Part shown: positions 8,130-32,813 of the stretch, piece after piece
Position numbering within the stretch: position 1 is the first letter of the stretch
Layout: every line of letters begins with the position of its first letter
Notes under the pieces: model-generated
What the model saw: only the letters and a program-made list of their open reading frames with translations
Databases searched by the model: none
What the model was told of the DNA's origin: nothing
Made by a program: the position numbers and the translations under genes
IMG/VR virus record: IMGVR_UViG_3300028561_000525
Length of the DNA stretch: 33,800 bases
Direction: 5' to 3' (one strand)
Source: a virus
Taxonomy: Duplodnaviria > Heunggongvirae > Uroviricota > Caudoviricetes

Positions 8130-9080
8130 TTATAGCTCATCGAGTTCTTTTAATAAATCCTGATCGGGCGGCTCCTCATAATCATCAACATCCTCTTCAG
8201 CTGCCGATTTCTTTGGTGGTTCTACTGCTGTTGATTTTGGTGGGGCTACAGGCTCTTCTTTTCTCACATCACCATTCGCTACTTTACCTCTGTATCTTGC
8301 CCATTCGTCTTTCACGATTTCCCACAACATTTCCCCCTTGAGAAGGGAAATGATATCTTCATCTGACATTCTCTGTGAGGAAATATATTCATCTACATCG
8401 AATGCTTGACCCAAAATGGTCTGGATTTCCTTGTCAGTTCTTGCCAGGGCATTTGGTTTTCTGGCAAACTCGGAATCTGCGTAAACAGGCCATTGTTTAC
8501 CATCTCTCGTTGGCTTTGTGGCCTTTACTTTGATGATAAAGTTATAACCTTCTTCGCCCGGATCAAATACGGCTTTTCCAAGACCGTGTTTCATATCTGT
8601 GATTGTTCCCTTTAGCTTCGATTCGACTTCTGCTGGGAACTCATATAATTTTACCGTGTTGGTGAACTTCTCTTCTCTATCTGTATCCCGCGGGTCATCC
8701 ACTACAAAAATATTGCCGACAAATTTCTCTTTTCTCTTTATCGTGGATGCCTGTTGCTTATCAGCCTGTGTTCCTGTATATAATTTACTGGCTGCCGCAC
8801 AGAAAGGACACCAATTATAAAAGTCATAGGTCTTTTCACAAAGAGGGAAGTACCATCTGTCACCGGACTTGAACCCGTGATAGTAAAATCTCTTGTAAAA
8901 TCTTCCCTTGGGATCTGGAAGGTATCTTACCTCATAGACCTTTGGCTTGTCCTGTGTTCCCATTGATGGGGTCTGCCATACTGTTTCAGACCTGCGAGGG
9001 CCAGCTGTTTTCTTCGTTTCCTCTTGTTGTTTTTCTTCTACGAATTGGTCAAATAAATCTTTTTTTATCCATTTACTCAT
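8130..9080 (-). CDS. gp32: Single-stranded DNA-binding protein (T4 gp32-like)
   Basis: VRYLP, YYHGF, CEKT...CPFC Zn site, LYEFP, FDPGEEGYNFIIK, YADSEF, acidic tail ending DLLKELDEL. Confidence 0.92.
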   Translation of the reverse strand: MSKWIKKDLFDQFVEEKQQEETKKTAGPRRSETVWQTPSMGTQDKPKVYEVRYLPDPKGRFYKRFYYHGFKSGDRWYFPLCEKTYDFYNWCPFCAAASKLYTGTQADKQQASTIKRKEKFVGNIFVVDDPRDTDREEKFTNTVKLYEFPAEVESKLKGTITDMKHGLGKAVFDPGEEGYNFIIKVKATKPTRDGKQWPVYADSEFARKPNALARTDKEIQTILGQAFDVDEYISSQRMSDEDIISLLKGEMLWEIVKDEWARYRGKVANGDVRKEEPVAPPKSTAVEPPKKSAAEEDVDDYEEPPDQDLLKELDEL

Positions 9081-9209: not shown

Positions 9210-9401
9210 TCATTTTACCACTTTTTTCTGCCGATGGAAAGATTGCCTCCTTTTTCTTGGCTTTTCCTTACTTTCGTTTAGGTTGTTTTCCTTATACTTT
9301 TTCTTTATTTCTTCCGGAAAATCCTTATCATATAACATCGTGCCCGACGGTGGTGGTGTTATCAGCAAGTCCTTCCTGTTTATCCTTTTTACCATTCTCA
9401 T
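9210..9401 (-). CDS. Small basic hypothetical protein
   Basis: ORF track; AGGAGA SD. Confidence 0.55.
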   Translation of the reverse strand: MRMVKRINRKDLLITPPPSGTMLYDKDFPEEIKKKYKENNLNESKEKPRKRRQSFHRQKKVVK

Positions 9402-10029
9402 ATCTCCTGTTCAAAGTTACGAACACTCTTTCCATAAACTCCGGAAAATTGTCCACAACCTCAACATACTTTCTGTAATTTTCCACTATGTAAGGTATCT
9501 GTGCCCTGTCATCGTCCGTCAGAGATACAAATCCCTTGTTTATTAACCAGACAAGGATATATTTGTCAATTTTCCCCTCTATGTAATGTTTTATTATTAT
9601 ACTCTGATGACCTTCTTTCTGTTTACAGTAGAATGAGAGGGGCAATATATCATCAAATTTTTCCTTGAACTGCTCAAGATATTTCCTGATGAATTTTGTT
9701 GAAGTTACAATTTCCCTTTTCCCGCCGCGCAATTCCCGCTTCTTATTCTTGTCCTTCTCGATATAATATTTCAACAATTTGATATTGAAAAATCTCACAT
9801 AAGTAAAATTCTTCCCAAACAATTCAAATCCACAGGCCATAAATTTATTGATGTTTATATTTTTCCATTTTGTAGAGAAATACAGGGCGGCCTTGTTCAG
9901 ATATGCCCTGTTCTGCGAGGACATTTTGGTATTGAAATAATATTCAAAATCCTTTGGTAGCTGATACGGTCTTGCGTGATGTAGGGCTTGGGCCCTTCTA
10001 AATGCCTTGTAAACTTCGAAAACTGTCAT
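9328..10029 (-). CDS. gp59: Probable helicase loader (T4 gp59-like)
   Basis: Size, position upstream of gp32, and a C-terminal pattern IIIKHYIEGKIDKYILVWL...YRKYV resembling gp59. Confidence 0.55.
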   Translation of the reverse strand: MTVFEVYKAFRRAQALHHARPYQLPKDFEYYFNTKMSSQNRAYLNKAALYFSTKWKNININKFMACGFELFGKNFTYVRFFNIKLLKYYIEKDKNKKRELRGGKREIVTSTKFIRKYLEQFKEKFDDILPLSFYCKQKEGHQSIIIKHYIEGKIDKYILVWLINKGFVSLTDDDRAQIPYIVENYRKYVEVVDNFPEFMERVFVTLNRRYENGKKDKQEGLADNTTTVGHDVI

Positions 10030-10030: not shown

Positions 10031-11125
10031 TCAAAATGGAACCTTCTTTCCGAATAATTTTAAATTTGAGTTGATATAATGCCTTACATTATAATAATTG
10101 TTTTCTTCCCACCACAATTGTGCCTTTACTGTTTCGTAATCTTTCTTCCAGCTCTTCGCCCTCAAGTCAATGTCCTTTACAAGATTTTCCAGATTGGAAA
10201 TCAATTCATCATCGTTATTTGCCCTGGCAAAGGCATTTTTATATGGCTCTATATTAGTATACACCGCCGGAACACCAAGGGCAACATACTCCAACATTTT
10301 TATATTGCTTTTACATTCATTGAATATACCGGGCATTAGCGGGGCCATAGCCATATCTACATCGAGCCTCTTCAGGAATGCTGGATACTCAAATATATTT
10401 CTCCACCCGTGGTGCTCTATTTTTCCCTTGAGGTCAATGAGTTCTTTTGGAATACCGCCACAAATCACCCATTGATATTTATCAACTGTGCCACGGATGT
10501 ATTTGAGGAGCTCTTGGCCAAAGTCTCCACCGGATTTTCCCGGCTTGACAGCAAAATGATTTTCTGACCCCGCCCAGAGTATTCGTGGTTTTGTTTCTCT
10601 CGGATTGTTTTCGTGCTTCGGGATAATTTCTCCCCACACAAATTTGGGTAGATGGTTGGGAATGATTTCTATATTGGTATTATATTTAGAGTATACTTCT
10701 TTGAGCTTCTCCGTTGAAACGGTAATACCGTTTACTTTTGTCATCATCTCTTCGATGTTCTTTTCGTTATCCCTATAATAATCAGAGGCATAATTCCAAT
10801 CGGGAATATTGATGAGAAGGTCATCAATCTCGTAGATGATGGGGGTTTTATAGGTCTTTGTTACCTGATTGATAAAATTAGATATGAGGGCAAGATGGGA
10901 TTTGGTTGCGGCCCTTTGAAATATAACAAAACTAAAATTTTTGTAGTAATCAGTCTGCCTTATGAAATACGCTGAATAGAAACCCACGAATCTATAACCT
11001 TGATATCGTAGGTGTGGGAGAAATAGGTGTGGATAGATAACTCGTATCGTTCCACACCCTTGCGTATCTCCTACATAACTAAGTATGTTTACTGAGGCAG
11101 GCTTTGATATAACCTGCAAATTCAT
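10031..11125 (-). CDS. Glycosyltransferase, GT-B fold (GT4-like)
   Basis: GCGTIRV..P, YEIDD, VSTEKL, PNHLP, ILWAGS..H, FNECKSNIKMLEY..LGVP.V. Confidence 0.85.
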   Translation of the reverse strand: MNLQVISKPASVNILSYVGDTQGCGTIRVIYPHLFLPHLRYQGYRFVGFYSAYFIRQTDYYKNFSFVIFQRAATKSHLALISNFINQVTKTYKTPIIYEIDDLLINIPDWNYASDYYRDNEKNIEEMMTKVNGITVSTEKLKEVYSKYNTNIEIIPNHLPKFVWGEIIPKHENNPRETKPRILWAGSENHFAVKPGKSGGDFGQELLKYIRGTVDKYQWVICGGIPKELIDLKGKIEHHGWRNIFEYPAFLKRLDVDMAMAPLMPGIFNECKSNIKMLEYVALGVPAVYTNIEPYKNAFARANNDDELISNLENLVKDIDLRAKSWKKDYETVKAQLWWEENNYYNVRHYINSNLKLFGKKVPF

Positions 11126-11128: not shown

Positions 11129-11995
11129 TTAAGTTGTCCAAGAATCTTCAAGTTCAATGCTTTGGGTGTTGGAGATACCCGCTCTTACATTGGTTGTATC
11201 TACATCCCTTTTCAATTCCTTTCTCTGTATGAGATGTTTATTTAAAATGTGGATTGTGGGGAGTCCAATCGGTGTTCTGTTTGCGATTGATCCCGTATTC
11301 ACATTTTCTAGCACGCCTTCAACTTCCTTTGCTATAGTTAGAATATCTTCAGCCGAATTCCATTTTGGTTTCCACTTCCATTTTCCCCAGCAATCAGGTT
11401 GTGCCTGGTGATAATGTGAGAAGAATCTCAAGCCAATTGGTGTTCTTGTTGAAACAGACTTTACATTATCTCCTTCTGTCGATACTAATATAACAATCGG
11501 TGTAATAAGTTTCTTTTGAAACTTTGTCTCTATCGGTTTTTGGTCTACAAATTTTGGCCAGTAGATACTCCTTATGTACCAATAAATTTCTCCTTTTTTA
11601 TTGCCCGGAGAAATTGAAAGCCCGCGCTCCGCCTGCTGAAAGGAAACCTGAGGCATAATTTGTGAACTTTCGAGTTTCCTCTTTAGCTCTATTTCCTTTC
11701 TCTCATATTCTTCTCTATAGGTTTGAACAAATGACACCATATCAGCCACTTTCTTTTGAATGTTATCCTTTATGGATGCCAATTTCTGGTTGAGAATATG
11801 TTTGTATTCTCTTTTAATCTCATCTATAGAGTCAAGATTTTCGACTTCGATAAGTTTAAGTTTTAAAATTTTATCTCCGGCCCGGAGGGATAAGCCCTTC
11901 AGTTCAACATCATTTATATTGACGGTATCAACCGTGGCAAATATACTTGACATCTCGTTCAAAAGGGTTTCGGAGATATCCCTTGGTGCGGCCAT
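11129..11995 (-). CDS. Coiled-coil plus probable prokaryotic E2 (ubiquitin-conjugating)-like domain
   Basis: Only Cys lies in FFSHYHQAQPDCWG, resembling the E2 H-x-H/N...C active-site spacing; directly downstream of a Ubl gene. Confidence 0.55.
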   Translation of the reverse strand: MAAPRDISETLLNEMSSIFATVDTVNINDVELKGLSLRAGDKILKLKLIEVENLDSIDEIKREYKHILNQKLASIKDNIQKKVADMVSFVQTYREEYERKEIELKRKLESSQIMPQVSFQQAERGLSISPGNKKGEIYWYIRSIYWPKFVDQKPIETKFQKKLITPIVILVSTEGDNVKSVSTRTPIGLRFFSHYHQAQPDCWGKWKWKPKWNSAEDILTIAKEVEGVLENVNTGSIANRTPIGLPTIHILNKHLIQRKELKRDVDTTNVRAGISNTQSIELEDSWTT

Positions 11996-12060
11996 AATTT
12001 CATACCTTTCTTGTTTGTTTTTGAGTGGGGGTAGCTGCTACGCACCCACCCCCTTCTCAA

Positions 12061-12327
12061 TTAGAAACCAGCGACATCGTAAGGTCTGATTTCAACCTTG
12101 TCGCCCTCGTTAAGCACTTCGGGAGCCTGTGAGGGTTTGATTTCGCTGCCGTTGAGGATAATTCTGAATTTTCCGAAACCGGCATCTCTCGCGAGATTCA
12201 TAACGGTATCCTTAAACGGTGTGCCGGGGGTAAGTGGAATAGAAGCATTGTTTACCAGAGCACAAGTCTCTGAAGAAAATTCTGCTCTACGCTCTTCTGC
12301 GCCATTCCATACATCATCTCTATCCAT
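12061..12327 (-). CDS. Ubiquitin-like (beta-grasp) protein ending -PYDVAG-F
   Basis: 88 aa; pattern FRIILNGSEI...LNEGDKVEIRP typical of ThiS/MoaD/Ubl folds; penultimate Gly. Confidence 0.75.
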   Translation of the reverse strand: MDRDDVWNGAEERRAEFSSETCALVNNASIPLTPGTPFKDTVMNLARDAGFGKFRIILNGSEIKPSQAPEVLNEGDKVEIRPYDVAGF

Positions 12328-12392
12328 AAAAAAACCTCCTATCAGGATTTCAACTAATTATATCATATTTCAAATAGTGTGTAAATAAGAAA

Positions 12393-13148
12393 TTATACCT
12401 CTTTTCTTGACATTAGATAATACTTCTCCGTGCCGTCTTTCTTCTCGACAAATACCATACCAAGTTCCTGCTGTCTCACAAAGGCGAAATTCGTTCTGAA
12501 ATTGTCGAAATCATCTTCGATGACGGACATCAGGTTCACAAAGTTCCTGTAATCAAAACATAGGTTCAAATCGTCCTCTTTTATATCCTGTAATAAATCA
12601 AATTTCAGAGTGTTGGAATATGGATTCTGTTTATCTGTAGTCTCCATCGAGAATATCTTGTTTATGACGGTGAAATATATTTTACCGAACCTCATTCCAA
12701 TTTTCTTGATTTTATTGAAATCGGATATGAATGAAGAATTTAAGTCAAACGAGACAAAATATTTTACACTTTCTCTCGGCGCCGTTGCTGAAAAAACAGT
12801 AACGACATTTGGTGAGCAGAAGAAGATATTTGATTTCTGGTTTCCAGATGTAATCGCTATTTTTTCATCGAAAATTCTGATATCCGCCTCTTCATCACCT
12901 TCTATAAGGGCGAGATATGGCATAACAGATATACTTGGTTCCGAAAAGTTCAATGTATATTCGGCTCCCCTCTTTATTTCAAGTACATCATTTGCGACAT
13001 CCAGAATTACGATGGCATCCTTGGAATTTTGCATCAACATTCTGGATTGGATTTTATCTGAAGTTAATTTCAGCTGAACACTCTCTATTGAAAAATTGAG
13101 TGTTGCTTTCTGTAACACAGATTTAAAATTCTCAACATTTAATTTCAT
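12393..13148 (-). CDS. gp45: Sliding clamp (T4 gp45-like)
   Basis: 251 aa, beta-rich, downstream of the clamp loader subunits. Confidence 0.7.
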   Translation of the reverse strand: MKLNVENFKSVLQKATLNFSIESVQLKLTSDKIQSRMLMQNSKDAIVILDVANDVLEIKRGAEYTLNFSEPSISVMPYLALIEGDEEADIRIFDEKIAITSGNQKSNIFFCSPNVVTVFSATAPRESVKYFVSFDLNSSFISDFNKIKKIGMRFGKIYFTVINKIFSMETTDKQNPYSNTLKFDLLQDIKEDDLNLCFDYRNFVNLMSVIEDDFDNFRTNFAFVRQQELGMVFVEKKDGTEKYYLMSRKEV

Positions 13149-15116: not shown

Positions 15117-15479
15117 GGGGGTGCACAGGCTTCGACAGAGGTTTTGGTACTTCAGGCGCACGCCGGAGATAATCATCGGCTCCGTTATCAACTGATTATC
15201 ATATAAGCGCAGACTACAGTTATAGTTACGCAATGGCGGCTTAGTTAACCGCCCACAATTTTCATACTCTCCTCTCCATCGGGGTTGGAAATTGTTCAAA
15301 TCAATGGGGAGCCGGGAAAATAGGTTGTTTCGCCTATTTCACGGTAATAAAGAAACTGGATTTGATGTATCGGTTTTCTGTTAGGAGCATCGAATTGACC
15401 GCAACAAACAGAGAAGCGTGTAATTCACCTGATTTATCGGGGCTTTTGGACGCCGGTTCGATTCCGGCCACCTCCACCA
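15117..15479 (+). ncRNA. ssrA: tmRNA; tag (A)ADYSYSYAMAA*
   Basis: 5' GGGGGTG pairs with 3' CACCTCC-ACCA (G3:U); T arm GCCGGTTCGATTCCGGC; resume context TATAAGC-GCA at 15209; tag ORF 15209-15244 ends AA-TAG. Confidence 0.92.
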
Positions 15480-15540
15480 TAAATAACAATGAGGGGGTCA
15501 TATAATGAAGGGCGAGCGATTCTTTTCATAGAATCTTGCC

Positions 15541-15590
15541 AAAGGGCAGTATAAGCCCCCTACGAAGTAAAGGAGATACTGCCCTTTTTT
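15541..15590 (+). terminator. Intrinsic terminator after tmRNA
   Basis: AAAGGGCAGTAT / ATACTGCCCTTT 12-bp stem plus T run. Confidence 0.7.
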
Positions 15591-15628
15591 ATTGCGTAAG
15601 TCATTGAAATTATTGAGAAACATTTTTC

Positions 15629-15657
15629 TTGACAGGGATACCGTATTATGATATGAT
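15629..15657 (+). promoter_or_regulatory. Promoter TTGACA-N17-TATGAT
   Basis: Near-consensus sigma70 promoter upstream of a structured RNA and tRNA-Asn. Confidence 0.7.
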
Positions 15658-15679
15658 ATGTCGTATTCTTTGAAAATTT

Positions 15680-15870
15680 AGAGGGTAGTAGAGATGAACT
15701 TGTTGCGGCAAGTTGAACGAACTCGTAAGGAACAGAGGAACCGCCATTCCATCTGTTCGCCCTCTTTATTATAATCCGTGGGTTGTCACCGTTTCCTGTC
15801 CTGACAACATCTGGCCTCGCCGCCGTGGAGCCACCCCAGCGAGGGAATAACTGGTGGCCAGCAGGAAACA
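15680..15870 (+). ncRNA. Unidentified structured RNA(s) upstream of tRNA-Asn
   Basis: GAGGG/CCCTC, AACTTG/CAAGTT, GTTGTCA/TGACAAC, GTTTCCTG/CAGGAAAC, CCTCGC/GCGAGG stems; GC-rich. Confidence 0.45.
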
Positions 15871-15873
15871 CAT

Positions 15874-15947
15874 TCCGGTATGGTGAAACGGTATCACGAA
15901 TGGCTGTTAACCATTAGTTATTGGTTCGATTCCATTTACCGGAGCCA
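15874..15947 (+). tRNA. tRNA-Asn(GTT)
   Basis: Cloverleaf; AATGG-CTGTTAA-CCATT; CCA end. Confidence 0.9.
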
Positions 15948-15957
15948 GAAAAAATTG

Positions 15958-15986
15958 TTTACATTCTATGTAAACTGTGTTATAAT
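15958..15986 (+). promoter_or_regulatory. Promoter TTTACA-N17-TATAAT upstream of the main tRNA array
   Basis: TTTACAttctatgtaaactgtgtTATAAT. Confidence 0.75.
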
Positions 15987-16025
15987 TTACATATATAATA
16001 TTGACATATAATTTCAGAGGATTCT

Positions 16026-16121
16026 ATGACGAAATATTTTCTACATAAAGATTGTTGGTTTTATTTAGTGCCGAGCCTTGCGATTGAAACAAAGCCAGCA
16101 GAGGGGGGCACTATAGAATAG
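16026..16121 (+). CDS. Candidate 31-aa leader peptide MTKYFLHKDCWFYLVPSLAIETKPAEGGTIE
   Basis: AGAGGA SD; lies between the promoter and a terminator. Confidence 0.4.
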   Translation: MTKYFLHKDCWFYLVPSLAIETKPAEGGTIE

Positions 16122-16152
16122 AAGAGTCAAATCCTATAGAGTAGAATTATTG

Positions 16153-16188
16153 AAGGGAGATTGGGTTTTGACTCAATCTCCCTTTTTT
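16153..16188 (+). terminator. Strong intrinsic terminator or attenuator before the tRNA array
   Basis: 14-bp stem AAGGGAGATTGGGT / ACTCAATCTCCCTT, TTTG loop, T run. Confidence 0.75.
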
Positions 16189-16210
16189 GTTTTTGTTCTT
16201 TGAAAAATAT

Positions 16211-16286
16211 CGGAGAGTGGCGCAGATGGTAGCGTGCTTGACTTGGGATCAAGAAGTCGCAGGTTCAAATCCTGTCTCTCCGACCA
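16211..16286 (+). tRNA. tRNA-Pro(TGG)
   Basis: Cloverleaf; CTTGA-CTTGGGA-TCAAG; CCA. Confidence 0.92.
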
Positions 16287-16289
16287 GAA

Positions 16290-16363
16290 TGTAGATTGGC
16301 GTCCGGAATTATTACTGTTACAAATGGGGGCGTCACCTCGTAACAGGGTAATGTCAATCTACA
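16290..16363 (+). ncRNA. Structured hairpin RNA, family A copy 1
   Basis: TGTAGATTGGC...GTCAATCTACA closing stem; homologous to 16918-17032. Confidence 0.55.
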
Positions 16364-16368
16364 CAAAA

Positions 16369-16512
16369 TATAGAGGTTGTGAGTGGAAACACTTCATCGA
16401 ATGTCAGCCTGAGGCCGGGCTGACCTGTAGCCTGATTGCAAGGGATACGAAGTAGATAAGAGTTAGACACATATTACATAGTATACGATGTATATGCTAC
16501 AACCTCTTTATA
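16369..16512 (+). ncRNA. Multibranched structured RNA
   Basis: AGAGGTTGT/ACAACCTCT closing stem, GAGTG-GAAA-CACTT, GTCAGCC/GGCTGAC. Confidence 0.45.
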
Positions 16513-16513
16513 T

Positions 16514-16589
16514 AGCCGGTTAGCTCAATTGGGAGAGCATCACGTTTACACCGTGAGGGCCGGGGGTTCAATTCCCTCACCGGCTACCA
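16514..16589 (+). tRNA. tRNA-Val(TAC)
   Basis: Cloverleaf; TCACG-TTTACAC-CGTGA; CCA. Confidence 0.92.
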
Positions 16590-16597
16590 GAAAATAT

Positions 16598-16732
16598 AGG
16601 TGTAAACAAGGTAGTCCGGAACGCCTTGGTCAGTTCGTCTAATGGATAGGACAACTTTGAGGAAGTAAATTCGTCGCGCGGCGGACACTTCCATAAAGGA
16701 AATGTGGGTTCAACTCCCACCTGACAACACCT
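16598..16732 (+). ncRNA. tRNA-like RNA with D and T arms but an extended anticodon arm
   Basis: GTCT-AATGGATA-GGAC D arm, GTGGG-TTCAACT-CCCAC T arm, 36-nt structured insert in place of the anticodon loop, extra closing stem AGGTGT/ACACCT. Confidence 0.55.
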
Positions 16733-16824
16733 CTATGAATTACTCATATAGGCGGTAAGAGCCCTATATGTAATGGTGTGGTAATGAGTGAGGATAACCA
16801 CAACGAAAACACCTTACTCACTAT

Positions 16825-16900
16825 AGAATCGTAGCTCAGTTGGGAGAGCGTTGCCCTGACACGGCAAAGGTCGTGGGTTCAACTCCCGCCGATTCTACCA
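16825..16900 (+). tRNA. tRNA-Val(GAC)
   Basis: Cloverleaf; TTGCC-CTGACAC-GGCAA; CCA. Confidence 0.92.
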
Positions 16901-16917
16901 TCTTTGAAAACAGAATA

Positions 16918-17032
16918 TACAGATTGGCGCTCGAGATTATTTCTGTGACTATATTGAATCTATGACGAGCCGCCGGCCGGAAACCGGGAGTGCGCGGTAG
17001 AGTGATTAGGAATGGGATAATGTCAATCTGTA
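16918..17032 (+). ncRNA. Structured hairpin RNA, family A copy 2
   Basis: TACAGATTGGC...GTCAATCTGTA closing stem with compensatory changes relative to copy 1. Confidence 0.55.
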
Positions 17033-17041
17033 AAAAAATGT

Positions 17042-17113
17042 CGTGGTGATTGCAGAAATGTGAGGAGGAAGCCGGATAAAACTTATGTCCAATACCGGCC
17101 ATCACCACGCCCA
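17042..17113 (+). ncRNA. tRNA-sized RNA with a 9-bp terminal stem and CCA, no canonical loops
   Basis: CGTGGTGAT/ATCACCACG-C-CCA; internal GCCGG/CCGGC. Confidence 0.4.
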
Positions 17114-17123
17114 GAAAAAATAT

Positions 17124-17200
17124 GGGGCGTTAGCTCACTATGGGAGAGCATCTCGCTTGCACCGAGAAGGCAGAGAGTTCGAATCTCTCACGCTCCACCA
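17124..17200 (+). tRNA. tRNA-Ala(TGC)
   Basis: Cloverleaf; G3:U70; CCA. Confidence 0.92.
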
Positions 17201-17204
17201 AAAT

Positions 17205-17284
17205 ATCCCGGTGATGCTGGTATCGAATCCAGCACGATGTATAACATCGTTAGAATAAGGTTCCTTCAATTCCCCGGGCGGGAT
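17205..17284 (+). ncRNA. Permuted tRNA-like RNA (T arm, closed acceptor hairpin, D arm; YrlA-like topology)
   Basis: GCTGG-TATCGAAT-CCAGC, ACGATG-TATAA-CATCGT, TA-GAA-TAAGGTTCC-TTC, closed by ATCCCG/CGGGAT. Confidence 0.4.
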
Positions 17285-17287
17285 TTT

Positions 17288-17360
17288 CGCGGGTAAGATT
17301 GGTATCTCGCCATGGCTCATAACCAAGGTTCAGGGGGTTCGATTCCCTCACCCGCTACCA
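17288..17360 (+). tRNA. tRNA-Met(CAT), atypical (C1:U72 mismatch, shortened D arm)
   Basis: Acceptor CGCGGGT/ACCCGCT, CTCATAA loop, T arm, CCA. Confidence 0.7.
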
Positions 17361-17367
17361 AAAACAC

Positions 17368-17457
17368 GGGAGATGTTCCCCACGGCGGTCTGTAAAACCG
17401 TTGTCTATAATTATGTGGGGCGGCAGACGGGTGGTTCAACTCCTCCATCTCCCACCA
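17368..17457 (+). tRNA. tRNA-Tyr(GTA), atypical (no local D hairpin, enlarged variable arm)
   Basis: GGGAGAT/ATCTCCC acceptor, GCGGT-CTGTAAA-ACCGT, T arm, CCA. Confidence 0.7.
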
Positions 17458-17465
17458 AAATATAT

Positions 17466-17542
17466 GGTGGCAGAAGCCAAATGGTGAGGCACAGGGTTGT
17501 GGCCCCTGTAAGGAGCGGGTTCGATTCCCGTCTGTCACCCCA
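17466..17542 (+). tRNA. tRNA-His(GTG)
   Basis: G-1:C73; CAGGG-TTGTGGC-CCCTG; CCA. Confidence 0.92.
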
Positions 17543-17546
17543 AAAA

Positions 17547-17660
17547 TAGATGGTGATATAGTAGTATCAGTAACGGTTGATAGTATTGTGGGCTTCTACT
17601 AAAGCTTGGTCACACAAGAGGGTAAACACCGTCCAGTAGGGTTGGAAACCTACCCATCTA
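17547..17660 (+). ncRNA. tRNA-like RNA with a non-canonical central arm
   Basis: TAGATGG/CCATCTA closing stem, TATCA-GTAACGGT-TGATA D-like arm, GTAGG..CCTAC T-like arm. Confidence 0.45.
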
Positions 17661-17666
17661 TAGAAT

Positions 17667-17742
17667 GGCCTTGTAGCTTAGTAGCCAGAGCACTTGACTG
17701 TCAATCAAGTAGGCGTGGGTGCAACTCCCATCAAGGTCGCCA
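17667..17742 (+). tRNA. tRNA-Asp(GTC)
   Basis: Cloverleaf; CTTGA-CTGTCAA-TCAAG; A18/G55 variant; CCA. Confidence 0.88.
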
Positions 17743-17873
17743 GAACTTGGTGGTACTCTTCCATCACGCCATAGGGAACGGAACGGGAAATCATAACCGT
17801 TCATCAACCTATGGAAAGAGAGAACCGTGAAAATCGGTTCTGTGTAGATGACTTGCAAGCATCTACACTTAAT

Positions 17874-17949
17874 GGGCTCGTGGCCAAATAGCTAAGGCGA
17901 CGGTCTGCAAAACCGTAGATTGTGGGTGCAATTCCCATCGGGCCCTCCA
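17874..17949 (+). tRNA. tRNA-Cys(GCA)
   Basis: Cloverleaf; ACGGT-CTGCAAA-ACCGT; U73; A18/G55 variant; CCA. Confidence 0.88.
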
Positions 17950-17957
17950 GAAAATAT

Positions 17958-18028
17958 GGGAGATGTGGGTTAAAGCCCCACCGGATGCCGCGGTAATCCG
18001 TAGGTTAATGAGAATAAACCGCCCTCCA
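17958..18028 (+). ncRNA. Degenerate tRNA-like element ending in CCA
   Basis: GGGAG.../CCCTCCA, GGG-TTAAAG-CCC, CGGA/TCCG; no valid anticodon loop. Confidence 0.35.
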
Positions 18029-18034
18029 AAATAT

Positions 18035-18112
18035 AGACCCGTAGGCGAAACGGATTATGCCGCCACCCTTTCAAGGTGGAGATTGCGAGTTCAAATCTCG
18101 TCGGGTCTACCA
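18035..18112 (+). tRNA. tRNA-Glu(TTC)
   Basis: Cloverleaf; CCACC-CTTTCAA-GGTGG; CCA. Confidence 0.88.
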
Positions 18113-18116
18113 TATA

Positions 18117-18230
18117 TGGGATGTGAGCTACGATGTTGGTAAGGCCTGAAGGGGCACTCTATAGGGATGCCAACTTTTTATCCCTATAAAATAGTGATGC
18201 CAGTAGGTATAATCCTACCACATCCCACGA
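18117..18230 (+). ncRNA. tRNA-like RNA with a long central arm
   Basis: TGGGATGTG/CACATCCCA, GTAGG-TATAAT-CCTAC, GGCA..TGCC enclosing TATAGGGA/TCCCTATA. Confidence 0.5.
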
Positions 18231-18235
18231 AATAT

Positions 18236-18310
18236 GAGGTCGTAGCTCAACGGTAGAGCAACTGGCTTTTAACCAGTAGGTTGAGGGTTCAATTCCCTTC
18301 GGCTTCACCA
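18236..18310 (+). tRNA. tRNA-Lys(TTT)
   Basis: Cloverleaf; ACTGG-CTTTTAA-CCAGT; CCA. Confidence 0.92.
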
Positions 18311-18319
18311 AAAATATGT

Positions 18320-18395
18320 GGGTATGTAGCAAAGTGGCAAATGCAATCGGCTCTTAACCGATAGAGCGCAGGTTCAAATCCTGTCATACCCACCA
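18320..18395 (+). tRNA. tRNA-Lys(CTT)
   Basis: Cloverleaf; ATCGG-CTCTTAA-CCGAT; CCA. Confidence 0.92.
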
Positions 18396-18402
18396 AAAAT
18401 AA

Positions 18403-18493
18403 AGTTGTATCAAAGGCAAACGTATGTGCCGATTAGTGGTCTGAAGCTCCGTCATTTGGCGGTGGTGGACGGTTCAATTCCGTTGATACAATT
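18403..18493 (+). ncRNA. tRNA-like element (acceptor, T arm, variable arm) without a valid anticodon arm or CCA
   Basis: TTGTATCA/TGATACAA, GACGG-TTCAATT-CCGTT, CCGTCA-TT-TGGCGG. Confidence 0.4.
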
Positions 18494-18505
18494 TTTATAA
18501 AATAC

Positions 18506-18581
18506 GGGTCTTTGGTGTAAACGCAAACACACTTGTCTCCAAAACAAGCAGATGAGGGTTGAAATCCTTCAAGGCCCGCCA
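18506..18581 (+). tRNA. tRNA-Trp(CCA)
   Basis: Cloverleaf; CTTGT-CTCCAAA-ACAAG; C19/G56 variant; CCA. Confidence 0.88.
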
Positions 18582-18651
18582 TAAAAAGTGTCGAAAGAGG
18601 CACAGAAGGTCGAGAGATTTTCGACATACTATGCCTAATTATACAATTTTT

Positions 18652-18726
18652 GCTCCCATCGTCTAATGGTTAGGACGCTGGCCTCTCACGCCGGAAATAT
18701 GAGTTCAAATCTCTTTGGGAGTACCA
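18652..18726 (+). tRNA. tRNA-Glu(CTC)
   Basis: Cloverleaf; CTGGC-CTCTCAC-GCCGG; CCA. Confidence 0.9.
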
Positions 18727-18737
18727 GAGGAAAGAAT

Positions 18738-19031
18738 ATGTATCACGATTTTTACATATACAAAAATGTAAGACCGAATGGTAACCTCATGAAAATACAA
18801 GTCATCAAGGAGTTGAGGTCTGTGCTTTCTCTTGGTCTGAAAGAAGCAAAAGACATTGTTGACTTTATGGATACTATCACGGGAACCAATAGTTTGTCAT
18901 ACAGGGTAAATATGACGAAGGAACAGGCATTACAATTAAAAGATTTGGGTTTTAGTATCTGGTACGCGAGTACGGGGAAGGTAGTAACTGCTGAGGAATT
19001 TTTACCGGATGAATTATTTGTAATTGAATAG
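18738..19031 (+). CDS. Protein with a ribosomal bL12 C-terminal-domain motif
   Basis: KIQVIKELRSVLSLGLKEAKDIVD matches the bL12 KI.VIK.VR.IT.LGLKEAKDLVE motif; GAGGA SD. Confidence 0.7.
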   Translation: MYHDFYIYKNVRPNGNLMKIQVIKELRSVLSLGLKEAKDIVDFMDTITGTNSLSYRVNMTKEQALQLKDLGFSIWYASTGKVVTAEEFLPDELFVIE

Positions 19032-19034
19032 AAT

Positions 19035-19110
19035 GGGGCGTTAGCTCAGTTGGGAGAGCACAAGGCTGGCAGTCTTGGGGTCGAGAGTTCAAGTCTCTCA
19101 CGCTCCACCA
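19035..19110 (+). tRNA. tRNA-Ala(GGC)
   Basis: Cloverleaf; G3:U70; CCA. Confidence 0.92.
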
Positions 19111-19120
19111 AGGATTGAAA

Positions 19121-19696
19121 ATGGGAAGAACATTTATAACAGCGGATACTCACTTCGGTCACGAAGATATGATTGGTTTCTGCAACAGGCCTTTCAAGAC
19201 CGTGGAAAAGATGGATAGGGTTTTGATAAGGAACTGGAACGAAAGGGTGAAACCAAAGGACACCGTTATATTTGTTGGAGATTTTGCTTTCAATGAATGT
19301 AACAGAGTGGATTATTATATTGAGAGGCTGAATGGTGACAAGGTTTTTATCAGGGGAAACCACGATAAAAACAACGGGCTCAAGACAAAAATTGAGAATC
19401 TCACTTTGAGAAACGGAAATAATCTTTTGTATTGTGTCCACGATCCAAGACACATAAACAGGGATATCAATATCAACCTTGTTGCTCACGTTCACTTGAA
19501 TTGGAGAGCAAAGTGGATAACTTGGAATGATACAAAAAGAGGAAATATCCTCATCAATGTAGGTGTTGATTGGTGGAAATTTTATCCGGTTGAATTACAG
19601 GAGATAATGGCTTTTGTAAATCATATCAAGAAAAATTTTCCAACATTGAATTATAACTACAATGATTGGATAAGACCTTATAAAGAGGAAAGGTAA
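19121..19696 (+). CDS. Calcineurin-like metallophosphoesterase
   Basis: ADTHFGH, VGDF, RGNHD, HDP, AHVH, NVGVD. Confidence 0.9.
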   Translation: MGRTFITADTHFGHEDMIGFCNRPFKTVEKMDRVLIRNWNERVKPKDTVIFVGDFAFNECNRVDYYIERLNGDKVFIRGNHDKNNGLKTKIENLTLRNGNNLLYCVHDPRHINRDININLVAHVHLNWRAKWITWNDTKRGNILINVGVDWWKFYPVELQEIMAFVNHIKKNFPTLNYNYNDWIRPYKEER

Positions 19697-19701
19697 ATAA
19701 A

Positions 19702-20478
19702 ATGTTAGGACTACCAAGTGATTACAAGTTATTGTTCAGGACTGTAGCCGGAAGTCATCTTTACGGAACCGCAACGGAAACTTCTGATGTGGATGAAAGG
19801 GGTGTGTTCCTTGCACCGGAAAGATACTGGCTCGGCTTTCTTGACAGGGTTGAACAGGTTGAGGATAAGAAACAGGACAAGGTTTTTTATGAGTTCAGAA
19901 AGTTCCTGAAACTTACTCTTGACTGTAACCCGAATATGGTCGAGTTGCTTTTTGTTCCTGAAGATAAATGGTTGAACCATTCTGATGAGTGGTTTGATGT
20001 TCTGAAAGTGAGAGATGCTTTTCTTTCCAAGAAAGCAAAACACACTTTCTCAGGATATGCTCATTCTCAGCTCAAGAGGTTGAAGAACCATAAAAGATGG
20101 ATGGACGGTTTTGTTCCTACCGATAAATCCGAAAGGGAAGCATGGGAACTCTGGAAGAAAAACAGAAATCCCGAAAGATTTGCCCTTGAGGAAAAGTTTG
20201 GGTATGATACGAAACACGCTGCCCATCTGATGAGATTGATGTATGAAGGTAAGGAACTGTTACTTACCGGAAATCTTACTTTTCCAAGACCGGAAGCAGA
20301 GTTTCTTGTTTTTTTGAGAAACGGATACTGGTCTTACGATGAGTTGATGGAGAATGTTTCCAAGTTTGATGAGGACTTTGAAAGGTGGTATGAGTTATCT
20401 CCACTTCCTCATTCTCCTGACAGAGTAAGAGTAAACGAACTCTGTATGGATGTTGCAAGGAGACTATTATTGAAATAA
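19702..20478 (+). CDS. Nucleotidyltransferase (Nuc-transf/RlaP-like family)
   Basis: VAGSHLYG...SDVDERGVF, CNPNMVELLF, GYAHSQLKR, GYDTKHAAHLMRL. Confidence 0.85.
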   Translation: MLGLPSDYKLLFRTVAGSHLYGTATETSDVDERGVFLAPERYWLGFLDRVEQVEDKKQDKVFYEFRKFLKLTLDCNPNMVELLFVPEDKWLNHSDEWFDVLKVRDAFLSKKAKHTFSGYAHSQLKRLKNHKRWMDGFVPTDKSEREAWELWKKNRNPERFALEEKFGYDTKHAAHLMRLMYEGKELLLTGNLTFPRPEAEFLVFLRNGYWSYDELMENVSKFDEDFERWYELSPLPHSPDRVRVNELCMDVARRLLLK

Positions 20479-20581
20479 CGGGTTTGAGGGGATGCCCCGC
20501 TGACCATTCCTACAAGGAATGGGGAGGCTCATCAGGTTAGTCCTCATGGCTGCCGTGGATGGGAGCCCGTATAGAACAAAG

Positions 20582-20647
20582 TTCCCGCTCGGGAATAATT
20601 CGGTTCTTTTCGGAAGAAATGTTATCGGTTATTCCCGCTCGGGAATA
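20582..20647 (+). repeat. Two copies of the palindrome TTCCCG-CT-CGGGAATA
   Basis: Identical 16-mers at 20582-20597 and 20632-20647. Confidence 0.8.
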
Positions 20648-20649
20648 TT

Positions 20650-20726
20650 GGAGATGTAGCTCAGTAGGTAGTAGCGCTTGCCTGAAGAGCAAGAGGTCGG
20701 CGGTTCAATTCCGCCTGTCTCCACCA
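20650..20726 (+). tRNA. tRNA-Phe(GAA)
   Basis: Cloverleaf; CTTGC-CTGAAGA-GCAAG; CCA. Confidence 0.92.
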
Positions 20727-20728
20727 AT

Positions 20729-20804
20729 GCCGGAATAGCGCAACTGGAAACGCAGGTCTTTCGTAAGGACAAGATTATCGGTTCAAATCCGATTTCCGGC
20801 TCCA
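20729..20804 (+). tRNA. tRNA-Thr(CGT)
   Basis: GCCGGAA/TTCCGGC acceptor; TTCGTAA loop; CCA. Confidence 0.85.
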
Positions 20805-20812
20805 ATAAATAT

Positions 20813-20889
20813 ATGGGGTCTGGTATGGACTGGCTATGAGAAGCAAGGCTCAAATGCCGAAGCCCGTTAGATTCGGGCGCCCCATTCCA
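20813..20889 (+). ncRNA. tRNA-like element with CCA and a non-canonical anticodon arm
   Basis: ATGGGGT/GCCCCAT-T-CCA, GCCCG-TTAGATT-CGGGC. Confidence 0.45.
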
Positions 20890-20896
20890 GAATAAT

Positions 20897-20979
20897 GCCG
20901 ATGTCGCCTAATGGTATGGCAGCTGATTTGTAATCAGCCGGAGAAATCTGTGGGGGTTCGATTCCCTCCATCGGCTCCA
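20897..20979 (+). tRNA. tRNA-Thr(TGT) with a long variable arm
   Basis: GCTGA-TTTGTAA-TCAGC; 13-nt variable region GGA-GAAA-TCT; CCA. Confidence 0.88.
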
Positions 20980-20987
20980 GAAAATAT

Positions 20988-21062
20988 GCGGATGTAACTC
21001 AACGGTAGAGTATCTCGTTGCCATCGAGAAGGTTGACGGTTCAAATCCGTTCATCCGCTCCA
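20988..21062 (+). tRNA. tRNA-Gly(GCC)
   Basis: Cloverleaf; U73; CCA. Confidence 0.92.
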
Positions 21063-21070
21063 AAATTTAT

Positions 21071-21148
21071 GCCGGTGTGATGGAACTTGGCATACATACT
21101 GCGCTTAGAACGCAGGTTTTCGGGGTTCAACTCCCTGCACCGGCACCA
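21071..21148 (+). tRNA. tRNA-Leu(TAG), short variable loop
   Basis: CTGCG-CTTAGAA-CGCAG; A73; CCA. Confidence 0.88.
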
Positions 21149-21172
21149 TAAATATATAGAAGTAAAACAGAT

Positions 21173-21748
21173 ATGGCCGAGACAAGAAAAGCAAGAAAGA
21201 GAAGGCACGAAGAGGGATTTTTCCAGAAGTATTGTAATGGAAGAGGTATTGATATAGGTTGTGGTAATGACCCCATTCTTCCGGATGTGGATATGTGGGA
21301 TCTATCCATCAGTAAAGATCACGATGCAACTTATATGAAAGGTATTCCGGACAATACTTATGACTTCGTATATTCGTCACATTGCCTTGAGGATTTGGAA
21401 AAACCGGATGTGGCAATAAAGAACTGGTGGAGAATATTGAGAGATGATGGATATCTCATTATTTTTGTTCCTCATCGTGATTTATTCGAATTGAGAAGGA
21501 CACTACCTTCTGCTGGTAATGCAAATCACAAATGGTTCTTTGTGATTGATAAAAATGAGCCGCCAGTTACAATAGGATTGATACCATTTATTATTGACAA
21601 TCTTACGGATTATGATATAATTTATGTGAAGAAGTGTGACGATAACTACAGTTATTACATAAAAGATAACAGATATGTAATAGCGGCCGGGGAGTTTTCC
21701 ATCGAGGCGGTTATCAGAAAAGGAAATAAAACAAAGTTTATAGATTAG
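21173..21748 (+). CDS. Class I SAM-dependent methyltransferase
   Basis: GIDIGCG, YDFVYSSHCLEDL, WWRILRDDGYLIIFVP. Confidence 0.88.
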   Translation: MAETRKARKRRHEEGFFQKYCNGRGIDIGCGNDPILPDVDMWDLSISKDHDATYMKGIPDNTYDFVYSSHCLEDLEKPDVAIKNWWRILRDDGYLIIFVPHRDLFELRRTLPSAGNANHKWFFVIDKNEPPVTIGLIPFIIDNLTDYDIIYVKKCDDNYSYYIKDNRYVIAAGEFSIEAVIRKGNKTKFID

Positions 21749-21826
21749 CCGGAGTGAAGGGAATTAGGCATACCTTCCTGACTTAAAATTAGGAGTGTGG
21801 GAGTTCGACTCTCCCCTCCGGCACCA
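21748..21826 (+). tRNA. tRNA-Leu(TAA), short variable loop
   Basis: CCTGA-CTTAAAA-TTAGG; A73; CCA. Confidence 0.88.
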
Positions 21827-21828
21827 AT

Positions 21829-21914
21829 GGGGAAGTGGTGTAATAGCAGCCACGCAAGTCTGAGGGGCTTGTGCTCGAAAGGGCGTGTAGGTGCAAATCC
21901 TACCTTCCTCACCA
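21829..21914 (+). tRNA. tRNA-Leu(GAG)
   Basis: CAAGT-CTGAGGG-GCTTG; long variable arm; A18/G55 variant; CCA. Confidence 0.88.
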
Positions 21915-21919
21915 GAAAT

Positions 21920-22033
21920 ATCGGGGTATCGTGTCAGCGATAATGGAAGTGGGTTTCATAGACCGCCTTGACCTGACAGAAAAGAGGATGGTTGACCCTA
22001 ACCTATGAAACGGGCGTGACCCCGTTCCCCGAT
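21920..22033 (+). ncRNA. tRNA-like RNA with a long central arm
   Basis: ATCGGGG/CCCCGAT, TATCG/CGATA, GTTTCATAG/CTATGAAAC, AACGG/CCGTT. Confidence 0.45.
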
Positions 22034-22042
22034 TGAAAATAT

Positions 22043-22117
22043 GGCCGGGTAGTTCAATGGTAGAACGTGCGACTTATAATCGCTTGACGGTAGGTTCAAC
22101 TCCTCTCCCGGCTACCA
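22043..22117 (+). tRNA. tRNA-Ile(TAT)
   Basis: GCGA-CTTATAA-TCGC; A73; CCA. Confidence 0.88.
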
Positions 22118-22131
22118 ATATTGGAGTTATT

Positions 22132-22401
22132 ATGAAGCAGTTGACACAAAAAAATCTGGATGAAATCCTGTCGAAGATGTTTGAAATGGTTGGTGCCATT
22201 TATGATCCTTCCGTAGTAAAGAAAGAGAGATGGTATCTGAAATACAGATGGACAAAGATGCAGGAAGAACAATTCAGAAAGTGGTTGGTTTCTTATCTGA
22301 AGAAAAATAAGTTCTGTTTGAACACAAAGATTGCCGAAAAAGAAGCCAATTATTTTCTTCTTTGGACGGGATTTCCAACATCGGATTTTGAGAAAAAATA
22401 A
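22132..22401 (+). CDS. Hypothetical protein (89 aa)
   Basis: GGAG SD; MKQLTQKNLDEILSKMFEMVG... Confidence 0.65.
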   Translation: MKQLTQKNLDEILSKMFEMVGAIYDPSVVKKERWYLKYRWTKMQEEQFRKWLVSYLKKNKFCLNTKIAEKEANYFLLWTGFPTSDFEKK

Positions 22402-22475
22402 GCGGGGTTCGTATAGTGGTAATACCTCAGCCTTCCAAGCTGATGCCGAGGGTTCAATTCCCTTACCCCGCTCCA
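22402..22475 (+). tRNA. tRNA-Gly(TCC)
   Basis: Cloverleaf; TCAGC-CTTCCAA-GCTGA; CCA. Confidence 0.92.
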
Positions 22476-22479
22476 GAAA

Positions 22480-22680: not shown

Positions 22681-22714
22681 GAACTTTCTTCACGATGAAA
22701 AGAAAGGGTGCATA

Positions 22715-23632: not shown

Positions 23633-23633
23633 T

Positions 23634-25364: not shown

Positions 25365-25365
25365 T

Positions 25366-31017: not shown

Positions 31018-31104
31018 GGATTGTAATGTGATGGCTGAAGAGGCTCTGTCGAGTGCGTCATACAGTAAGGCACCTCTGCTTGTATGATTATCACATTACA
31101 ATCC
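31018..31104 (+). other. Long stem-loop (15-bp perfect stem) with internal pairings
   Basis: GGATTGTAATGTGAT / ATCACATTACAATCC. Confidence 0.7.
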
Positions 31105-31114: not shown

Positions 31115-31143
31115 TTTACCTCGTATCAAAAATATGGTATAAT
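31115..31143 (+). promoter_or_regulatory. Early promoter TTTACC-N17-TATAAT for the E1-JAB operon
   Basis: TTTACCtcgtatcaaaaatatggTATAAT. Confidence 0.75.
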
Positions 31144-32611: not shown

Positions 32612-32648
32612 AAAGGGGTTATTGATTTGATGGTCATAACCCCTTTTT
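32612..32648 (+). terminator. Intrinsic terminator closing the E1-JAB operon
   Basis: AAAGGGGTTAT / ATAACCCCTTT plus T run. Confidence 0.8.
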
Positions 32649-32813
32649 TCTGCATAAAAAATCATAAATAATTTTGATAATAAAACTTGTATTTTACAAA
32701 AATCTATATATTCCTCAACCTCACAAGTAATTTGTATTTTATCACATAATTTTTGGATTGTAAATACGGATGGATTTTTGTATGGAAAAAATGATAGTTT
32801 TGGGGGAAGATAT

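Follow-up and report, generated by a model that had tools for sequence, protein, structure and literature searches.

The subject of this analysis is a set of four genes, coding for a ubiquitin-like protein (Ubl), an E2-like protein (E2L), a minimal E1 and a JAB/JAMM metalloprotease (JAB), in a window of 33,800 nucleotides (the whole stretch of DNA that was analysed). The window is part of the virus record IMGVR_UViG_3300028561_000525 of IMG/VR, a 97-kb record with inverted terminal repeats and an estimated completeness of about half. The Ubl and E2L genes lie directly behind the gene of the sliding clamp; the stretch with the E1 and JAB genes begins 18.8 kb away from the Ubl gene. The two halves hold the following genes:

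12393-13148, minus strand: sliding-clamp gene (phrog_223, 5e-8), directly upstream of the Ubl gene
12061-12327, minus strand: Ubl precursor, open reading frame (ORF) of 88 residues with the C-terminus EIRPYDVAGF and an AGGAGG ribosome-binding site 8 nt upstream
11129-11995, minus strand: E2L, ORF of 288 residues whose only Cys, C202, lies in FFSHYHQAQPDCWG
31172-31762, plus strand: minimal E1 of the ThiF type, 196 residues (PF00899, 1.8e-20, 73.6 bits against a cut-off of 28.1)
31750-32589, plus strand: JAB/JAMM metalloprotease, 279 residues (PF14464, 1.8e-7, 31.4 bits with the cut-off at 25), in a gene that shares 13 nt with the E1 gene

Together, the four genes look like a seemingly complete, stripped-down kit for ubiquitin-like tagging, with the tag, its carrier enzyme, the activating enzyme and a trimming protease. 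An initial annotation, made from the sequence alone, had already placed an E1 and a JAB protease 19 kb from the other two genes, and the matches to PF00899 and PF14464 bear this out. We consider it likely that the four genes form one phage ubiquitin-like conjugation system, ancestrally a single operon behind the clamp gene and here split in two. This reading draws on gene order, on the predicted folds, on conserved motifs, on a promoter class shared by the two halves, and on the precedents set by the bacterial Bil and Bub systems. The comparison of gene order across related sequences is the strongest of these lines of evidence and the deciding one.

Gene order in related viruses

A search of IMG/VR with an E2L profile and the E1 returned 32 loci. 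On 25 distinct viral contigs, the E2L gene (or a paralog) is followed directly by a ThiF gene of 192-203 residues and then by a JAB gene, and clamp and Ubl genes precede E2L in all 24 of those contigs that reach upstream (L026 does not reach). The order clamp - Ubl - E2L - E1 - JAB is unbroken in these 25 contigs save for a second E2L gene in one lineage. The initial annotation had rested its proposal in part on co-occurrence of the four genes across related phages, and they clearly do co-occur. Since the four genes are adjacent in most relatives, its label of a split system is also the right one for the window.

The window and its seven closest contigs show the order clamp - Ubl - E2L - glycosyltransferase - p233 - gp32, where p233 is a protein of 233 residues. 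The other half of the window, HNH - E1 - JAB, is found in L034, with an E1 79% identical to that of the window. In a third contig, L011, a single stretch holds E2L-E1-JAB and, a few genes on, amidoligase-p85-HNH-glycosyltransferase-p233, which are the neighbours of both window halves. Because the order is contiguous in the relatives and L011 joins the neighbours of both halves, the split layout is best read, from these gene orders, as a derived rearrangement, with one operon Ubl - E2L - E1 - JAB after the clamp gene as the ancestral state. The HNH endonuclease beside the E1 gene (30477-31010, plus strand) is 95% identical to its counterpart in L034 (L034:2-406), while the identity between the same two sequences is 79% for E1 and 64% for JAB. 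Since the HNH protein is so much closer than the adjacent E1, it suggests a recently mobile (homing) endonuclease at the breakpoint of the rearrangement. The split layout shows that adjacency is not needed for keeping all four genes, and searches based on gene neighbourhood miss such cases, because the four genes are kept there without it.

With 255 sequence clusters found in public metagenomes by a profile of the E2L domain, the family is not a rare one. Distant E2L relatives (profile E-values of 1e-7 to 1e-17) occur in small, non-T4-like phage contigs with terminase, YopX and AAA_25 genes, where ThiF and JAB genes come after E2L and a small Ubl, ending in YDIAG, YDTAA or EDKAA, comes before it. 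The cassette stands next to the clamp gene throughout the T4-like clade and has no clamp gene beside it in the small phages; adjacency to the clamp gene may be inherited synteny.

The proteins encoded by the first half of the system were compared in family alignments of 18 (Ubl) and 15 (E2L) sequences, extended to at least 20 loci. In both alignments the key feature, the terminal Gly of Ubl and the Cys motif of E2L, is kept despite overall identities of 35-80%, and for this reason these features are not due to chance. An explanation in which the four genes are unrelated neighbours or decayed remnants, with a superficial likeness to a ubiquitin-like cascade, could appeal to the weak structural scores given below and to the fact that two of the four proteins match no family model. 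Four intact reading frames, motifs that stay invariant over relatives of 35-80% identity, an order kept in 25 contigs and on unrelated phage backbones, and the 255 E2L clusters speak so strongly against it that we give it almost no credence.

The Ubl and its E2-like partner

The ORF and an AlphaFold model of Ubl give the following layout:

Residues 1 to about 19: disordered N-terminal tail
Residues 20-87: beta-grasp domain
Residues 87 and 88: Gly87, the proposed reactive residue, capped by Phe88

The model (predicted local distance difference test, pLDDT, 71.5) has the topology beta-beta-alpha-beta-beta-beta. When it was re-aligned structurally against the Protein Data Bank (PDB), all of the 50 best rows were beta-grasp proteins (MoaD, SUMO, ISG15, ThiS, TtuB and ubiquitin among them), with Z-scores of 5.7-6.8, 61-69 residues aligned and root-mean-square deviations (rmsd) of 2.4-3.5 Å. 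Foldseek gave probabilities of 0.75-0.99 with E-values of only 0.02-0.1. In many rows residue 87 or 88 aligns with the last listed residue of the partner (MoaD 1jwb_D, ThiS 1zud_2, several SUMO proteins), and in these structure matches Gly87 falls where MoaD, ThiS, SUMO and ubiquitin have their C-terminal Gly. The 88-residue protein, which the initial annotation had described as beta-grasp-like and ending in EIRPYDVAG-F, is indeed encoded where it was placed and models as a beta-grasp domain. Comparison with Pfam, PHROG, NCBIfam and PADLOC models and with PDB sequences assigned it to no recognised family.

Searches of metagenomes yielded 17 relatives of Ubl. In the resulting alignment of 18 sequences Y83, D84, V85, A86 and G87 are invariant and are followed by zero to three variable residues (none, F, R, C, A, N, I or GRS); in further viral loci, 0-6 residues trail the Gly. 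Ubl precursors typically look like this, with a removable, variable cap after a conserved Gly. One relative (P0185) carries a Cys-rich extension of 186 residues fused after ...YEVAG.

For E2L, the predicted layout is as follows:

Residues 1-54: poorly modelled N-terminus
Residues 56-110: long helix
Residues 109-256: UBC-like domain with Cys202
After the domain: disordered tail ending in EDSWTT

The E2L model has a pLDDT of 73, and its domain 109-256 runs in the order helix, four main strands, long loop, helices. Structural re-alignment of this domain against the PDB returned E2 enzymes in 47 of 50 rows, with Z-scores of 5.3-6.4, 112-121 residues aligned (nearly the whole UBC core) and an rmsd of 4.3-5.3 Å (7.2 Å in one row); one RWD domain is also among the 50. 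A search of the E2L model independent of Foldseek had UbcH10 (5a31_Q, Z 6.5) as the sole match near the top that was not a coiled coil. The weak matches listed by Foldseek include Cap2, several E2s and RWD-like kinetochore domains, and at E-values of 0.001 or below Foldseek gave no match for the model of either Ubl or E2L. Clusters of the AlphaFold database contained an uncharacterised homologue only, and a shape search of the Atlas gave no useful match. The sole lead to E2 models came from a look-alike cluster in the Atlas, in which Prok-E2_D is assigned to 39% of the members (score 0.84). We regard a UBC-like fold of residues 109-256 as a reasonable prediction, held with less than high confidence. 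The UBC fold that the initial annotation expected is thus what the model gives, with a modest match. The same annotation had described a coiled-coil protein of 288 residues with a single Cys; the ORF and its only Cys, C202, stand, and the coiled coil turns out as a predicted helix of 55 residues (56-110).

In the model, C202 follows the fourth core strand (177-184) by 18 residues and precedes the next helix (215-229) by 13, in a loop with a pLDDT of 67-70. This spacing is comparable to that of Cys85 in UbcH5. C202 would lie in the loop between strand 4 and the helix, in the position of an E2 catalytic Cys. Around it H194, Y195, H196, D201, C202, W203, G204 and an ENxN motif further downstream are invariant in 20 sequences of 38-60% identity, and the Cys with its flanking His, Asp and Trp is invariant in at least 23 loci and also in the distant relatives.

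Several observations weigh against taking Ubl and E2L for a conjugation pair. The match to the E2 fold is moderate (Z about 6, rmsd 4.3-5 Å), and Z-scores below 8 can mirror a common arrangement. The loop with the Cys (191-210, pLDDT 67-70) belongs to the less confident part of the model, and the placement of C202 is based on the order of secondary structure elements, not on a residue-level superposition. The motif reads HYHQxxPDCWG, with HYHQ 6-8 residues before the Cys, and the canonical HPN is absent; of the E2-like H-x-H/N...C motif that had been proposed, the single Cys holds up, and the HxH is not the canonical HPN. No sequence model of a Ubl or E2 family (Pfam, NCBIfam, PHROGs, PADLOC, PDB sequences) recognises Ubl or E2L. 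Lastly, the Ubls of several relatives finish in Ala-Ala, not Ala-Gly (L018:1845-2138, L031:5640-5915, L033:2252-2587).

Family-wide searches gave a similar picture. Twenty E2L family members compared with Pfam, including UQ_con and the Prok-E2 families, matched none of its models, and no E2 model came up at E-values as high as 5. Profile searches with both families against PDB sequences gave nothing meaningful, and ten distant E2L relatives scanned with Pfam showed only DUF4314/SH3-like N-terminal domains and no link to E2s. Co-folding of Ubl 15-87 with E2L 105-262 produced scores of 0.40, 0.00 and 0.00 against a mark of 0.32, which count neither way.

Two further features of these proteins were noticed. 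A short motif (acidic-x-Trp-small) is common to the N-terminal tail of Ubl, DDVWNG (residues 4-9; 12301-12318, minus strand), and the C-terminus of E2L, EDSWTT (residues 283-288; 11132-11149, minus strand). It is kept in about 20 divergent loci, as DVWDG, EYWDQ and ETWNG in Ubls and as DVWGS, DFWTS and DIWGN at the ends of E2L proteins. The motif may be a shared docking peptide, with E1, Ubl itself and the clamp as candidate partners. In one lineage a second E2L gene lies between E2L and E1 (L004:10961-11707, also in L024 and L025). In L004 this paralog has 248 residues, is shorter at the N-terminus, shares 41% identity over 176 residues and keeps HYHQ..DCWG; the two may form an E2 pair. The idea that p233 is a paralog of the extra gene of L004 was ruled out, as the two share no similarity and the extra gene is the second E2L.

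Proposed activation and transfer, and known systems

Across an alignment of 16 sequences, E1 keeps RQ(7-8), GxGGxG, D47, N55-R58 (NxxR), K70 and DCTD(107-110), which include the N-terminal Arg-Gln, the GxGGxG loop, the ribose Asp (D47), the Lys and the Mg site (DCTD) of adenylating enzymes. The sole invariant Cys of the same alignment lies inside DCTD; there is none after residue 108 and no CxxC zinc site. The E1 of the window is 58% identical to the cassette-borne E1 of L004, and ThiF/MoeB models score as well on it as models of defence-system E1s. By its motifs the enzyme should be able to adenylate, with no obvious residue for a thioester, and because it has no catalytic Cys the textbook E1~E2 thioester relay does not apply.

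The metal site of JAB is complete, with E78, H127-x-H129, S137 and D140 (E...HxHx7SxxD) invariant in 16 sequences. The proposal that JAB trims the Ubl fits this full JAMM motif, and the variable residues after the Gly are compatible with trimming. The C-terminal extension of JAB varies across the family from about 40 to 400 residues. The JAB tail in the window contains an acidic amphipathic stretch, LSLEDELMKEF (258-268; 32521-32553, plus strand), and similar ones (LTLAEELELM, QTLEEEMDLM, KTLKEELEIL, MSLQSELEML) are present in many relatives, often with EL(N/D)F ahead of the stretch.

An E1 without a Cys to pass the Ubl on is also what would be expected if conjugation needed E1 alone, as in archaeal SAMPylation, and E2L, in place of carrying a thioester, acted as a non-catalytic adaptor (UEV/RWD-like), as a substrate or as a scaffold for bringing Ubl to its target. 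In Haloferax, the E1 UbaA alone is enough for conjugating SAMPs. Weak Foldseek matches to RWD and kinetochore RWD-like domains, the RWD domain in the re-alignment rows, and the failure of every E2 sequence model to match E2L are in keeping with this. A single Cys that is invariant together with its flanking His, Asp and Trp, in the loci and distant relatives counted above, is hard to account for in a non-catalytic adaptor; moreover, E2L is always the gene between Ubl and E1, and the 47 E2s among the 50 best re-alignment matches are catalytic ones. Conjugation by E1 alone therefore seems to us improbable.

A second alternative is a sulfur-carrier pathway. Here Ubl would be a thiocarboxylate carrier like ThiS, MoaD, CysO or TtuB, the Cys of E2L would relay a persulfide and JAB would free the product like Mec+, in the service of, for example, thiolation of phage tRNAs or the synthesis of a cofactor or an amino acid. 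The best structural matches of Ubl include MoaD, ThiS and TtuB, E1 fits ThiF/MoeB models as well as defence models and resembles MoeB-type enzymes in having no catalytic Cys, and the window contains 31 tRNA genes, including Lys-UUU, Glu-UUC and Gln-UUG, and a divergent pyridoxal-phosphate (PLP) enzyme. Against this, a rhodanese, a cysteine desulfurase, a PP-loop thiolase (TtuA/Ncs6), ThiG, MoaE or a CysM-type partner was found in or beside the cassette in none of the loci examined, and none of the related loci has the PLP enzyme. The conserved partner has a UBC-like fold instead, and the Ubl tail is Ala-Gly with cap residues whereas the carriers typically end in Gly-Gly. In the window itself, the initial annotation had seen no sulfur-transfer genes nearby, and among the ORFs scanned (not every ORF) ThiG, MoaE, rhodanese and desulfurase were likewise not seen; the PLP enzyme is weakly similar to D-Cys-desulfhydrase families. 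We rate both the sulfur-carrier pathway itself and the uses named for it as quite unlikely, below conjugation by E1 alone.

Returning to a four-gene conjugation system, we infer its chemistry from the genes, motifs, folds and linkage observed. JAB would remove Phe88 and expose Gly87 of Ubl, a step suggested by the variable tails after the Gly. The ThiF-type E1, probably as a homodimer, would adenylate Gly87 with ATP, for which it has the motifs. As E1 has no conserved Cys outside DCTD, Cys202 of E2L would attack the Ubl-adenylate directly, giving an E2L~Ubl thioester, from which Ubl would be passed to a Lys of the target, presumably with no separate E3. More speculatively, the variable N-terminal part of E2L (the long helix and the small region) could supply oligomerisation or target choice, and JAB, by analogy, might also reverse conjugates. 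Ubl might be attached to the replisome or clamp of the phage, or to proteins of the host. That the phage actually runs such a cascade of its own during infection, loading the E2 Cys from the adenylate and tagging either the replisome (for example the clamp, as an analogue of PCNA ubiquitination or SUMOylation) or host proteins (for takeover or for disarming ubiquitin-like defences), is a tentative proposal that we hold with considerable doubt. The roles suggested by the initial annotation, modification of replisome or host proteins or a decoy against host Ubl-based defences, are likewise speculative.

To our knowledge, host defence (type II CBASS, Bil and Bub) is so far the one setting in which experiments have shown ubiquitin-like conjugation in prokaryotes, and our literature searches found no description of this cassette or of a phage-encoded cascade. 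If the reading is right, a conserved, phage-encoded cascade puts ubiquitin-like chemistry on the attacker's side and raises the question of what a phage tags. Its E1 would be the smallest known, its E2-like proteins would make up a new family with an invariant Cys, and it would offer a minimal system for studying how an E2 is charged without an E1 thioester.

The cassette resembles Bil and type 6d/PRTRC in its workings, and by the tests available is a member of none of them. Bil, which Hor et al. in 2024 reportedly presented as a bacterial anti-phage ubiquitination system, has the same four roles, with a capped-Gly Ubl, a JAB-type trimmer, an E1 and an E2 with a catalytic Cys, and needs no E3. 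Its Ubl has one capping residue, Ala98 after Gly97, which is removed by its deubiquitinase (Chambers et al., PMC10557695). The Bil E1, however, is large and contains, besides an inactive and an active adenylation domain, a mobile Cys domain and a Zn site (PMC10557695), whereas the phage E1 has 196 residues, a single adenylation domain and neither a Cys domain nor a Zn site. In the Bil E2 the motif is CEHH, and the key His follows the Cys (PMC10557695), while in E2L, with its HYHQxxPDCWG and long N-terminal helix, the His come before it. In addition, the phage system is encoded by a virus and not by a host, and no link by sequence models was found.

Operon type 6d, which is uncharacterised, is likewise found on mobile DNA and has the same set of four gene types as here, namely a Ubl that stands alone, an E2-like protein, an E1 of the small ThiF type and a JAB (Iyer, Burroughs and Aravind 2006, PMC1779556). 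Its E2-like proteins have no His before the Cys and one after it (PMC1779556), the opposite of E2L, whose His precede the Cys. Membership of PRTRC was judged by the NCBIfam cut-offs for PRTRC_A, _B, _C and _ThiF (TIGR03734-03742). JAB matches PRTRC_A weakly (2.5e-4; 20.7 against 101.8 bits) and E1 matches PRTRC_ThiF (0.0077; 15.6 against 144.75 bits), both far below the cut-offs, and Ubl and E2L match no PRTRC model. A ParB-related gene was not seen in the ORFs scanned, and no search aimed at ParB was made.

With type II CBASS the phage system shares a similar adenylation core in E1 (PADLOC E1-E2 models about 3e-14; NCBIfam 6A-MBL cap2_3 4e-14) and a JAB as antagonist or trimmer. Cap2, in contrast, is an E2-E1 fusion that conjugates the CD-NTase, with no free Ubl, whereas the phage E1 and E2L are separate genes; no CD-NTase or effector was found in the window ORFs scanned. 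The conjugated C-terminus in type II CBASS may be Gly or Ala. MoeB-MoaD and ThiF-ThiS resemble the phage genes in pairing a small, homodimer-type E1 with a small beta-grasp protein that has a C-terminal Gly, and MoaD in its complex with MoeB (1jwb) is among the top structural matches of Ubl. They differ in that no genes for sulfur transfer or cofactors were seen here, E2L and JAB are conserved, and E1 has none of the Zn-binding CxxC pairs. Bub (6E/DUF6527) pathways run with an E1 and an E2 that both lack a catalytic Cys, and so provide a precedent for a cascade with a Cys-less E1 (Ye et al., PMC11601596). The Bub E2, without a Cys, forms Ser/Tyr oxyesters (PMC11601596), whereas E2L keeps its invariant Cys, and the place of JAB is taken in Bub by a DUF6527 serine protease.

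Expression signals and genome setting

The following signals flank the four genes:

12357..12385, minus strand: promoter-like TTTACA-N17-(TG)-TATAAT directly upstream of the Ubl gene, 11/12 consensus with an extended -10
12021..12060, minus strand: stable RNA hairpin adjoining the Ubl stop codon and lacking a U-run (-25.3 kcal/mol, z -4.9; none of 200 shuffled sequences reached this stability)
31018..31104, plus strand: perfect inverted repeat of 15 nt with a T-rich run behind it, located between HNH and the promoter of E1
31115..31143, plus strand: promoter-like TTTACC-N17-(TG)-TATAAT directly upstream of the E1 gene, of the same rare class
32615..32649, plus strand: hairpin resembling an intrinsic terminator, GGGGTTAT...ATAACCCC with T6 behind it, downstream of the JAB gene and identified by reading the sequence

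The class TTTAC(A/C)-N17 with TGnTATAAT has six sites in the 33.8 kb, against none expected in 100 shuffles. As far as consensus matches can tell, the two halves of the system look like separate units behind the same class of promoter. The hairpin between Ubl and E2L may stabilise or process the transcript and thereby set the ratio of Ubl to E2L, and the inverted repeat at 31018..31104 is probably a terminator that insulates the E1-JAB unit. The hairpin after JAB is not listed by a scan for hairpins, and its loop is suspected to exceed the limit of that scan.

The virus is an uncultured, distant T4-like phage. Scans with family models found minus-strand genes for HU, the large and small subunits of the clamp loader, the clamp, gp32 and RNase H, and no cultured phage has a clamp loader more than 34% identical to its own. 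Among 50,697 deposited phage genomes, searched at the DNA level and with tblastn, neither the region nor E2L had a relative, and a search of the same genomes with E1 found distant MoeB-like genes only. Beyond E2L lie the following genes:

10031-11125: glycosyltransferase, between the E2L gene and p233
9328-10029: p233, 233 residues, matching no family in the family-model scans
8130-9080, minus strand: gp32 (PF08804, 2.9e-17)

The initial annotation had set Ubl and E2L between gp45 and gp59/gp32. The clamp (phrog_223) and gp32 (PF08804) were recovered there, and gp59 was not confirmed, with the familyless p233 in that stretch. An orthologue of the glycosyltransferase is split by an intein with a LAGLIDADG endonuclease in two contigs (L001:10905-13103, L002:1145-3343).

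The two halves of the system are separated by a transfer-messenger RNA (tmRNA) gene and the 31 tRNA genes (15117-28223, plus strand). The divergent PLP-dependent enzyme lies inside this array (22715-23632, plus strand; PALP 2.4e-12), and its similarity to ACC-deaminase and D-Cys-desulfhydrase is weak. A link of the CysO/CysM type to this enzyme was considered and ruled out, since the enzyme is absent from all related loci. On the 5' side of HNH-E1-JAB (28054-30480, plus strand) there are a RimK-family ATP-grasp ligase (TIGR00768, 1.5e-31), a protein of 105 residues, an Amidoligase_2 enzyme and a protein of 85 residues. The longest ORF call of the ATP-grasp gene (28054-29106) is overlapped by a tRNA-Ser (28130-28223), and the gene therefore probably starts at 28237. 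In relatives, the amidoligase (L011) or the ATP-grasp gene (L018, L019) lies a few kb downstream of the cassette, and the ATP-grasp/amidoligase cluster may be a second peptide-ligation system.

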